A DNA stretch of 64,000 nucleotides, taken from contig CBDANS010000007.1 of the NCBI GenBank assembly GCA_965197745.1, positions 1,376,001-1,440,000 of the forward strand. The letters are read 5' to 3'. Shown in pieces: positions 29,740-32,293 of the stretch. A model generated the notes under the pieces. The model was not told where the DNA came from. It made no database searches and saw only the letters and a list, made by a program, of their open reading frames with translations. This stretch comes from Opitutales bacterium (lineage in GTDB: Bacteria > Verrucomicrobiota > Verrucomicrobiia > Opitutales > PNEW01). The position numbers and the translations under genes are program-made. How positions within the stretch are numbered: position 1 is the first letter of the stretch; each line of letters starts with the position of its first letter.

Positions 29740-29863
29740 GCTTTACCTTATCTTGAATTGATTTAGTAACTTTATGCTTTATTTAGATTTTCTGCTCAGA
29801 GAGAATGGACAAGCAATTCAGGTAGTGTTTTTAAAATTCAATAATATTTAACCGTTTCTTCCT

Positions 29864-30238
29864 ATGGCTAAACATTCTATTAATTATGGAATAATTATAA
29901 TCGCTGTTAGTATCGCCTTTTATATCGGAACATACAGGGTCAGCATGACTGCATTGATCCCGGGAATAATGGGAGTTGTCATGGTCATTTGCGGTTTGCT
30001 CGCACGCAAGGAAAGTCGTCGCAAACACATGATGCACGTGTCGGCAGTTGTTGCTTTAATCGGTTTTCTGGCTACCGCAGAAGGATTATTCAGGTTGATC
30101 GGAATGATGAGCGGCAAAGAAGTCGAGCGTTCCATAGCATTCATTGAAATGGCGATCACTTCGGTTATATTCCTCCTCTATGTTATCTCCTCGGTTCAGT
30201 CCTTTCGAGAGGCGCGGAGGAATAGAGGGGCAGAGTGA
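29864..30238 (+). CDS. Small four-helix membrane protein
   Basis: Hydrophobic helices; S.TALIP and RKHMMH motifs. Confidence 0.75.
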   Translation: MAKHSINYGIIIIAVSIAFYIGTYRVSMTALIPGIMGVVMVICGLLARKESRRKHMMHVSAVVALIGFLATAEGLFRLIGMMSGKEVERSIAFIEMAITSVIFLLYVISSVQSFREARRNRGAE

Positions 30239-30251
30239 TCAGTGATCAAAT

Positions 30252-30280
30252 TAGCTTCGTCTTCGTCCGCCTCTGCCTCT
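30252..30280 (+). repeat. Hexamer-based repeat (TTCGTC/TGCCTC), interrupted by the IS110
   Basis: TAGCTTCGTCTTCGTCCGCCTCTGCCTCT continues as TCGTCC after the IS; an inverted partner is at 31752-31787. Confidence 0.75.
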
Positions 30281-30399
30281 TGTAGGTTACCCCGCGATGA
30301 TAAGACAACCTTTTGAGTCCTTCCGAGAATGGGTCATCGTAACACGTCGGAGGAAGGACTGGAAAAAGCTTTCAACAGTGTCTACGGTTGAGAGTGCCA

Positions 30400-30586
30400 G
30401 GAACTCCCGACTCCTAATAAGAGGAGCCGGGAGCAAATCGGAAGAGTTCATTCTGCCTCTGGAACCCGCGTTAGCGGAGTTCAAGACGAAGCCTGGGAAC
30501 TTCCGATCTAACCTGGCTAATCTCAAACAATTGAAAGAGCCCGGATTATACCCCCGCGAGCTCATCTTGACAAGACCGAGATAGCC
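30400..30586 (+). ncRNA. Putative bridge RNA of the IS110 element (5' end approximate)
   Basis: 5' hairpin 30404-30433; target-binding loop with TCTGCCTCT (30452-30460) and GACGAAG (30485-30491); donor-binding loop with ACAATTG (30527-30533) and ACAAG (30570-30574). Confidence 0.85.
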
Positions 30587-31519
30587 ATGAATGAAAAAAA
30601 ACACACCCTCATCGCCATAGATATAGCCAAAAACACCTTGCAAGTGCAAAGTGCAGAGCAAAGTTACGCTCTAAGCAACGACAAGTCGGGACTCAAAGAA
30701 CTGCTCAAAGCCATAGGAAAGATGGATGCCCCCTTTGTGGTGTGCGAAGCCACAGGAGGCTACGAGCGCGCCTTGTTGAGCGCTTTGCATGAAGCGCAGA
30801 TTGTGGTGTGCCTGATTAATCCTGCGCGCGTACGGGCCTTCGCCACGAGCGATGGCATCCGTGCAAAGACCGATAAGATCGATGCCAAGGTATTGCTGCG
30901 CTTTGCTCAGCAAAAGCAGTTGTCCCCAACAGCTCCCCCGACACCCGAACAGCAACAGATGACTGCTTTACTGGATCGACGCCATCATCTGAGCGAACAG
31001 CTTGGCCGCGAGAAGAACCGCTTGCAGAACAGTCCCAAGAGCATCCACCTTTCCATCCAACGCATGATCCGTTTCGTTGAGAACGAAATCGATCGCATCG
31101 ACAAACAGCTGCGATTGCTCATCAACGAGAATGATCCACTGCGTGCGAAAGCCGAACTTATCGCTTCAGTCAAAGGAGTCGGTGAAGTGACGACTTGGAC
31201 CCTCCTGGCTTATATGAGCGAAATGACTCATCTGGGCCGCAATCAGTTGGTCGCTCTTGCCGGTCTGGCTCCCTATAATCGTGACAGTGGCAAGACCCAT
31301 TCTAAGCGATCGATAAAAGGAGGTCGTGCCAAAGTCAGAAAATGTCTCTATATGGCTGCTCGCACCGCGGCTCAACATAACCCCGTGATCAAACCTTATG
31401 TGCAGAGGTTAGTCGATCGGGGAATGCCTTACAAATGTGCTCTCGTTGCGGCCATGAGAAAACTCCTTATTCATCTGCAGTCCCTTCTTAAAAAACATCA
31501 ATTAGCTCTTGCTTCATGA
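30587..31519 (+). CDS. IS110 family transposase/recombinase
   Basis: DEDD RuvC-like residues (IAIDIAK, CEATG, KTDKIDA), KGVGEVT, catalytic Ser in GLAPYNRDSGK, GGRAKVRKCLY, ALVAAMRKL. Confidence 0.97.
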   Translation: MNEKKHTLIAIDIAKNTLQVQSAEQSYALSNDKSGLKELLKAIGKMDAPFVVCEATGGYERALLSALHEAQIVVCLINPARVRAFATSDGIRAKTDKIDAKVLLRFAQQKQLSPTAPPTPEQQQMTALLDRRHHLSEQLGREKNRLQNSPKSIHLSIQRMIRFVENEIDRIDKQLRLLINENDPLRAKAELIASVKGVGEVTTWTLLAYMSEMTHLGRNQLVALAGLAPYNRDSGKTHSKRSIKGGRAKVRKCLYMAARTAAQHNPVIKPYVQRLVDRGMPYKCALVAAMRKLLIHLQSLLKKHQLALAS

Positions 31520-31751
31520 CACAATTGCTTCGTCCTCCCAGGTATTTACAATAATATCAAGGTAGAACACGCTGCCTGACGGCCATAAACTTTGCGACGG
31601 CTGTTCCCTGGCGCGTTTAATTATGTCGTAATTGAAGAAGCGTGCTAAGGACCAACTTTCGTCCCGCGATGGCGGGACTATGGCTGGCAGGCAGCCCGCT
31701 CCACCTTTCTTACTTTTTAATCTTTTTGTGCTTTTTGTGGCTATTTCAATA

Positions 31752-31787
31752 TAGACGTAGACGAAGAGGCAGACGAAGACGAAGCTA
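31752..31787 (-). repeat. Inverted copy of the hexamer repeat, containing an empty IS110 target
   Basis: Reverse complement reads TAGCTTCGTCTTCGTCTGCCTCTTCGTCTACGTCTA; the first 16 nt equal 30252-30267. Confidence 0.8.
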
Positions 31788-31894
31788 TATACTTTCTTAT
31801 GCTTCGAAGGGGAGACCTAAAATACTCTTGGCAGGAATATCCATCTTCTCCTTGATATTCGCGCTCACTTACTACTAAATGGCCACTTCATTAA

Positions 31895-31968
31895 GCGCCG
31901 CTAGCTCAATTGGATAGAGCACCTGATTACGGATCAGGAGGTTGGGGGTTCGACTCCCTCGCGGCGTG
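31895..31968 (+). tRNA. tRNA-Arg(ACG), CCA not encoded
   Basis: Acceptor GCGCCGC/GCGGCGT, D arm GCTC-AATTGGATA-GAGC, anticodon arm CCTGA-TTACGGA-TCAGG, T loop GTTCGACTC. Confidence 0.96.
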
Positions 31969-32293
31969 CAATGGATATTCAACAAATTACATAATTCATA
32001 TACTACATATCCTTATTAGGATATCAGTCACTGTGTTTTTTCTGTGTTGATTGATCCTGCCGTGAAGATACTGAAGAAGGTAATTGAGTCGGGGGAAGAG
32101 CACTGTTGCGTGTGTTAAGTTTTAGATCTTAAGCAAAATAAATTTCAAAAAAAGCACAGGCACAGCTGAGTGTTATCGAGTAACCTGGCTTAGAGAACGG
32201 GTTTCCTGGGATTGGGGTATGCTCTGGGATGAGCCAGAAATAAAACCGTTAAATTACTCGCGAACTTAAATTAAGTTCGCTTACCAGGGAGCA

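Follow-up and report, generated by a model that had tools for sequence, protein, structure and literature searches.

The stretch of DNA analyzed here, henceforth termed the window, comprises 64,000 nucleotides of an Opitutales bacterium (contig CBDANS010000007.1, positions 1,376,001 to 1,440,000). Positions 30281-31529 of its forward strand are occupied by an insertion sequence of the IS110 group, 1249 bp long including one copy of a CT core. The element is composed of a long left end (306 nt, 30281-30586), a gene for a recombinase of 310 amino acids on the forward strand (30587-31519), and a right end of only 10 bp. Its left end is predicted to carry a bridge RNA of the type described for IS621 of Escherichia coli (accessible text of Durrant et al. 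2024, PMC11208160, and Hiraizumi et al. 2024, PMC11208158; structures 8wt6-8wt9). Coordinates are window positions on the forward strand unless a G000:C7 or a left-end position is named.

The source genome contains four full copies of the element and one 40-bp fragment. Each full copy shows 0-1 base differences over 1249 bp, located at element position 1146 in copy L002 and at element position 221 (window 30501) in copies L003 and L004. All four are preceded by the same nine nucleotides, the left target half TCTGCCT and the core CT (30272-30280, +), and followed by the right target half TCGTC (31530-31534, +; in the window TCGTC(CT), 31530-31536). Beyond these bases the flanks diverge. Because the flanks of four near-identical copies diverge exactly outside CT...CT, the element boundaries are independently fixed. 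The element starts with the right donor half TGTAG (30281-30285, +), of which TGT together with the core (CT+TGT) is complementary to the right donor guide described below, and it ends with the left donor half ACAATTG and the core CT (31521-31529, +). CT is found at both junctions in 4/4 copies, all of them in the same 14-nt site, and the ends TGTAGG.../...CAATTG lack an inverted repeat; TGTA[GA]G forms the element start in all 17 aligned orthologous leaders. An earlier reading of the window from its letters alone (the sequence-only reading) had derived the target TCTGCCT-CT-TCGTC and the donor ACAATTG-CT-TGTAG, and all of these strings lie where it had placed them. Other copies with different ends, or with targets unrelated to the guides, would have spoken against that reading; the ends and a guide-matching site are shared by 4/4 copies. 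In three public runs from three studies, assembled contigs hold the element as a separate piece (30279-31534) with a depth 4.2, 4.6, and 6.5 times that of the left flank, which fits a multi-copy repeat with these ends. The fragment, L005 (G000:C7:1372270-1372309), lies 3.7 kb before the window; its 40 bp are 85% identical to element positions 16-55 and possibly represent a left-end remnant.

A long left end holding the guide RNA and a short right end separate the IS110 group from the IS1111 group (accessible text of PMC11208160), and here the two ends measure 306 and 10 nt. The recombinase matches PF01548 at 2.4e-23 and PF02371 at 2.6e-19. Among proteins of solved structure, the best-scoring relatives are the ISCro4 transposase (9t56, E 2.7e-38, residues 8-300), which was compared by protein alone and in which the catalytic positions are aligned, and the IS621 transposase (8wt6, E 6.7e-38, residues 9-300). 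In the alignment, residues D12, E54, D96, D99, and S234 align with D11, E60, D102, D105, and S241, the catalytic residues of IS621 named in the text of PMC11208158 (the PDB chain is offset by two). Judged by its sequence, the protein contains both hallmarks of the IS110 family, a DEDD domain with four acidic residues and a Tnp domain (Tnp20) with the catalytic serine, in agreement with the earlier proposal of an intact recombinase. The four acidic residues are invariant in 35/35 aligned relatives; at the S234 column, 28 of the 35 have S, 6 have T, and one has R. In a set of 5.8 billion proteins, the closest reach 90, 86, 84, and 83% identity, and many others lie at 55-68%. With the nearest protein at 90% identity and no match in Rfam 15, the suggestion that the class is described and the ortholog perhaps new still holds.

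Fold of the left end and its guides

The last 150 nt of the left end constitute the putative RNA module. RNAfold recovers two stem-closed loops with inner hairpins in 30430-30590 (z = -2.55), including both stems and both hairpins that had been proposed by eye; the whole left end folds with z = -4.4. All features named in this section lie on the forward strand. Directly ahead of the target loop, a 5' stem-loop (30404-30433) is the counterpart of the IS621 5' stem-loop. The target-binding loop module (30437-30507) is closed by a stem in which 30438-30449 pairs with 30497-30506, interrupted by bulged A30445 (and G30446), and 9/11 pairs of this helix (helix 1) show compensatory change. It holds the left target guide TCTGCCTCT (30452-30460), identical to 30272-30280, an inner hairpin with bulged A30478 (30462-30482; helices 2 and 3), and the right target guide AAGACGAAG (30483-30491), the reverse complement of CT+TCGTC(TT). 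The sequence-only reading had assigned the last 7 nt of the latter, GACGAAG (30485-30491); the guide is really 9 nt long and pairs with CT+TCGTCTT. Predicted target pairing in the window thus covers 9/9 positions on the left and 7/7 on the right, the latter extending to 9/9 for two copies. The guide is followed by a handshake dinucleotide, CC (30492-30493), of which C30492 is complementary to donor G7 but not to target T7. Window position 30501 is T in the window copy and in L002, and C in L003, L004, and the repeat contig of the three public runs; C at this position gives a target-loop stem with two single-A bulges, the form of most orthologs.

The donor-binding loop module (30514-30587) is built alike. 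In its closing stem, 30515-30524 pairs with 30578-30586 around bulged A30520, 10/11 pairs of this helix (helix 4) show compensatory change, and the 3' strand of the module reaches the A of the recombinase ATG. The left donor guide ACAATTG (30527-30533) is identical to 31521-31527. It is followed by an inner hairpin with a GAGC/GCTC base and bulged A30559 (30537-30563; helices 5 and 6) and by the right donor guide (30566-30574), of which ACAAG (30570-30574) pairs with CT+TGT. In the handshake dinucleotide AC (30575-30576), A30575 is complementary to target T7 but not to donor G7. A bulged A occurs in the stem strand before each of the four guides (30445, 30478, 30520, 30559); the first linker base stands 5 nt past each of them (A30450, A30483, A30525, A30564), and the guides start two bases later. 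The earlier claim that four guides match the element's own target and donor is borne out by exact string matches. To what extent chance could supply them was assessed by dinucleotide-shuffling the 306-nt left end 20000 times, no in-loop position being required. The 9-mer arose in 14 shuffles, the right-target 7-mer in 1374, the donor 7-mer in 199, and the 5-mer in 5455; both target guides arose together in 2/20000 and both donor guides together in 50/20000. The donor loop also contains a strong antisense sigma-70-like site on the minus strand (30573-30545, TTGTCA-17-TATAAT, 11/12), which would drive transcription against the bridge RNA; TATACT is kept in the close relative L036, and the site is not kept in relatives with 56-57% identity.

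The layout was compared with that of IS621 from the text of the structure paper (PMC11208158). The two systems have in common the two recombinase domains with five catalytic residues, an RNA in the long left end next to a short right end, the CT core, a genomic repeat as target, and the order 5' stem-loop, target loop, donor loop. In the published text, the spacing from bulged A to linker runs from A43/67/116/150 to G48/72/121/155, equal to the spacing here, and guide offsets and lengths are equal as well. From the right donor guide to the end, the predicted RNA comprises 11 nt, 1 nt, and a 9-nt stem strand, as do IS621 positions 157-167, 168, and 169-177. Both follow the same top/bottom strand rule, by which the 3' side of a loop is the reverse complement of the core plus the right half, and both require bulges for full pairing of the right donor guide. 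The handshake rule described in PMC11208158, according to which these bases pair with position 7 of the non-cognate DNA, likewise fits. Unlike IS621, with an RNA of 177 nt and joined ends totaling 298 bp, the element has a 306-nt left end in which a conserved additional leader of ~115 nt, with two hairpins and invariant motifs, precedes the 5' stem-loop, and its donor-loop stem ends in the recombinase start codon. Further differences are the only distantly related protein, an A at each of the four positions held in IS621 by a conserved syn-G, which like the flipped-out A is read there by the Tnp domains, a left donor guide without the core, and the target and donor sequences themselves. Taken with the compensatory changes and the guide-target covariation described below, the IS621-type target-loop/donor-loop layout proposed from the letters alone agrees with the published description.

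Conservation and guide-target covariation in relatives

A covariance model (R1) built on four lineages yielded 36 matches in 63 sources, every one directly upstream of a recombinase gene and on the same strand; in a sample of the order, it matched in 12/151 genomes. Loci retrieved by means of a 35-sequence alignment belong for the most part to genomes of Opitutales and other Verrucomicrobiota, the more distant ones to Planctomycetota and other phyla. Across 32 distinct rows, 95% of the cells are paired and 29/35 pairs show changes on both sides, counted on an alignment fitted to the model, which favors structure. This level is reached in 0/500 shuffles, and sliding the partners by 1-3 columns leaves 30-45% paired.

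The ends of three related Opitutales IS110 elements are independently readable because these elements are multi-copy. They share the left-end architecture with the window element but differ in that each has its own target and correspondingly different guides. In OY829953.1 (84% protein identity), the target is TCATCG[C/T]-CT-TCGTC and the left target guide is TCATCGTCT. OZ252288.1 (56%) has the target CGCATGT-CT-CACTA and the guides CGCATGTCT, TAGTGAG, ACAGTTG, and CTACAAG, all four exact. The target of OZ219851.1 (57%) reads CTG[T/A/G]G[T/G]T-CT-CTGTG; three of its four guides contain one mismatch or wobble each, and the right donor guide is exact. On the donor side, relatives with ACAGTTG at the element end also have ACAGTTG as left donor guide, an A-to-G change in both places with one mismatch in group B. 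The right donor guide CTACAAG of relatives constitutes a full 7-nt match.

For a broader analysis of covariation, element ends were set from conserved donor parts only, i.e., the left donor guide string past the gene and CTTGTA[GA] before the RNA. The counts exclude duplicates with the same guides, loci in which the end string was absent or occurred more than once, loci at contig edges, and two right ends that have no CT. Among 24 distinct orthologs, the right guide and the right flank are identical at 98/120 positions, with 12 orthologs perfect; permuted pairings gave 38.2 (sd 5.6), and 0/10000 reached 98. The left guide agrees with the left flank at 149/171 positions in 19 orthologs when a one-base register shift is allowed, 15 of them matching in at least 8/9, compared with 79.1 (sd 6.1) for permuted pairings, of which 0/10000 reached 149. 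The handshake positions co-vary too. The target-loop handshake base can pair with donor position 7 in 18/19 orthologs, and the donor-loop handshake base can pair with target position 7 in 12/19, which 24/10000 permutations reach. The donor loop is much more conserved among orthologs than the target loop, a difference reported for IS110 elements in general, and too conserved for a strong covariation test. On one 2.9-kb contig, that of ortholog L061 (CAIOJL010000225.1), the right end runs straight into the left-end start (ACAGTTG-CC-TTGTAGG), a joint that looks like a head-to-tail tandem or a captured circle junction.

Target sites, activity, and alternative explanations

The 14-nt site TCTGCCT-CT-TCGTC exists in 16 exact unoccupied copies in the genome, and sites with at most one mismatch number 60, compared with 3 for the reversed pattern. 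One unoccupied target, TCTGCCTCTTCGTC, lies inverted on the minus strand 230 bp downstream of the element (31760-31773; G000:C7:1407760-1407773). Target sites sit within (CTTCGT)n-like arrays, often as inverted pairs around AT-rich DNA, and CTTCGTCTTCGTC occurs 75 times in the genome against an expectation of 0.13. The longer right flank CT+TCGTCTT is found at 2/4 copies and at 7/16 empty sites. Site-specific insertion into multi-copy intergenic palindromic host repeats has been described for ISPpu9 and ISPpu10 of Pseudomonas putida (accessible text of PMC12288879 and 10.64898/2026.03.19.712850); their counterpart here would be the (CTTCGT)n-like arrays in inverted pairs, the repeat family and the host phylum being different.

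The DNA to the right of the element (31530-31790) is a ~250-bp palindromic intergenic repeat with ~100 partial matches in the genome. Each tip carries a (CTTCGT)n-like array, the interior contains the inverted arms aggtagaacacgctgcc.../...ggcagcccgctccacct, and the same kind of right flank follows the element in the related genome OY829953.1. Given 90 bp common to the window copy and L002 (97.8% identical), a longer element or a carried flank was considered, and it was rejected because L003 and L004 diverge right after TCGTC. The shared 90-bp flank belongs to a diverged repeat family with ~100 partial matches, also beside an empty site.

With a probability of roughly 0.93, we take these features to represent an intact, autonomous IS110-group element with an IS621-type bridge RNA and its own specificity, its expression and activity being predicted. 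The predicted specificity comprises the target TCTGCCT-CT-TCGTC(TT) and the donor ACAATTG-CT-TGTAG. Several observations count against this interpretation. The left donor guide matches 7/7 positions and then continues with AA instead of the core CT. Contiguous pairing of the right donor guide is limited to 5 nt (the core plus 3), full pairing with TGTAG needing bulges. The base at the four places equivalent to the syn-G of IS621 is A, here and in close orthologs. A scan of 29800-32000 against Rfam 15 with E up to 1 returned no bridge-RNA family, only a tRNA and one weak match far below threshold. The fitted alignment noted above biases the pair count in favor of structure, and the covariation counts include poorly matching flanks, on the left in L061 (3/9) and L070 (6/9) and on the right in L059 (1/5) and in L058, L071, and L111 (2/5 each), which may partly result from mis-set boundaries. 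In L118, a relative with the same left guide, the site matches in only 5/7 positions. The contigs of four public runs contain no circle junction and no empty-site contig over 30150-31700, contigs being unable to show rare forms, and none of the public runs listed is on record as RNA. In the computed circle junction, a scan with the sigma-70 consensus, which may not be that of the host, gave nothing of at least 8/12 spanning the junction; the best match was TTGCTT-17-TAGGTT with 6/12.

These latter results bear on the alternative that survives best, i.e., that the copies form a recently dead or silent family whose guides are a fossil record of past specificity. Direct signs of circles or RNA are missing, the window copy and L002 have T at 30501 where C is found elsewhere, and the close relative L118 combines a mutated donor-loop hairpin base with its 5/7 target match. 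We nevertheless consider this alternative improbable: the four copies show 0-1 differences along 1249 bp, the reading frame is open, and no catalytic residue is lost, all of which argues for very recent movement. By the evidence of its sequence, the element appears recently active. In public runs X1, X3, and X4, contigs that exit the element at 31534 enter sequence outside the four flanks of this genome, which hints at more insertion sites there and counts against a dead family.

Another explanation holds that the guide-like matches act as DNA, the recombinase reading subterminal repeats without an RNA guide. This analysis covered DNA only, and before 2024 target choice in IS110/IS1111 elements was reportedly discussed in terms of DNA ends. 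The matches nonetheless sit in loops of stems that are kept by compensatory changes on one strand, their strand rule and spacing are those of the IS621 RNA complex of known structure, and the handshake positions co-vary, leaving the DNA-level explanation with very little probability.

For the bridge-RNA element that we favor, a cycle modeled on the IS621 work would proceed as follows. The element would excise as a circle, and its left end would be transcribed into the bridge RNA, in the IS621 type from a promoter rebuilt at the circle junction. Recombinase tetramers would bind this RNA, which in turn would pair around the CT core with the two strands of both target and donor. By serine-mediated strand exchange, aided by the handshake bases, the circle would then enter a further copy of the repeat. 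The element is an addition to the known bridge-RNA system and introduces no new mechanism. The searchable part of the PMC11208160 supplements contains TCTGCCTCT four times, all unrelated, and 10 Verrucomicrobia rows without comparable names. The element offers a natural bridge-RNA ortholog from Verrucomicrobiota with a fully readable predicted specificity. With 16 empty sites beside the four occupied ones in a single genome, and with close relatives that are distinguished chiefly by their target guides, the family represents a compact natural series for guide reprogramming in nature. The replacement of the syn-G by A and the uncovered donor core would amount to sequence rules unlike those of IS621.

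The leader and an open frame through the predicted RNA gene

The first 156 nt of the left end precede the RNA module, and the length of this part is conserved in most orthologs, measuring 150-156 nt in 14/26 with a located start. Fold and alignment of 17 orthologous leaders place a hairpin H1 with the invariant loop motifs CGAGAATGGG and CTCGTCGGAG at 30311-30365 (+) and a second hairpin H2, variable in sequence between orthologs, at 30368-30395 (+). The nearly invariant GCCAGG that follows (30396-30401, +) pairs with the equally conserved CCTGGC (30512-30517), at the base of the donor-loop stem, in the fold of the whole left end; in this model, the pairing would be a competitor of the donor-loop stem. 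No covariation is possible for it because both sides are invariant.

A putative leader open reading frame (ORF) of 95 codons (30297-30584, +) overlaps the whole bridge RNA. It begins with an ATG at left-end position 17 and ends with a TAG 2 nt before the recombinase ATG. We analyzed the frame in 24 lineages, 21 with a settable left-end start and 3 more, leaving out lineages without a findable start, close duplicates, and L061 as doubtful. A frame stays open over at least 85% of the left end in 18/24 lineages, and over at least 98% in 16, compared with 0/24 for reversed sequences. Of 500 dinucleotide shuffles per open case, 2-108 do as well, a number that does not exceed 34 in 15 of the 18 cases. 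An in-frame ATG is present at positions 14-18 in thirteen lineages, and the remaining two frames contain 4-9 stops in most lineages. In 11 lineages, the frame ends with a TAA or TAG lying 5-6 nt ahead of the recombinase start codon; otherwise it ends with the TGA of ATGA or is fused in frame to the recombinase, the fused form being that of distant elements and of protein P0012. Stops are also partly depleted in one minus-strand frame, an effect that we regard as a by-product. Of 26 more distant IS110 loci, 14 have an upstream stretch of at least 85 open codons, several being cut by contig ends; these cases are less telling because their G+C content is higher.

All orthologs except the closest read at least one segment in another phase than the window, in several cases where the alternative frame of the window has 1-3 stops. 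An inherited ancestral open frame is therefore no explanation. As the segments are read in different phases and the frame survives frame-shifting indels, it appears to be the frame, not the peptide, that is maintained. Pfam searches with the leader ORF and with the antisense ORF gave no match. These sequence patterns suggest that the open frame is a translated leader ORF coupled to recombinase expression. One model, which we put forward tentatively and rate at slightly below even odds, is that the transcript doubles as bridge RNA and as message of the leader ORF, recombinase synthesis and guide function being alternative fates. In this model, the ATG ~17 nt inside the element would lie near the expected start of a transcript from a junction promoter, and the ORF would cross all five hairpins to end where the recombinase start codon lies hidden in the donor-loop stem. 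Ribosomes translating the leader ORF would open the bridge RNA and pass to the recombinase start by termination-reinitiation, with selection keeping the frame open and not the peptide.

The open frame invites a third alternative to the bridge-RNA element, namely a left end whose main role is to encode protein, be it a small one or an N-terminal recombinase extension, with the RNA being secondary; the 18/24 open lineages and the in-frame fusions including P0012 would fit, but with no Pfam match, a peptide that is not conserved and whose segments are read in different phases, and stem and guide-target covariation that coding cannot explain, it has scarcely any probability. Coding and RNA functions of the left end may coexist. 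No description of a leader ORF in elements of the IS110 or bridge-RNA kind emerged from literature searches or from term searches in two papers. The putative ORF is relevant to the open question of how balanced output of recombinase and guide RNA is obtained from one promoter. Outside the element, a tRNA gene (62.3 bits) is located 366 bp downstream, at 31895-31968.

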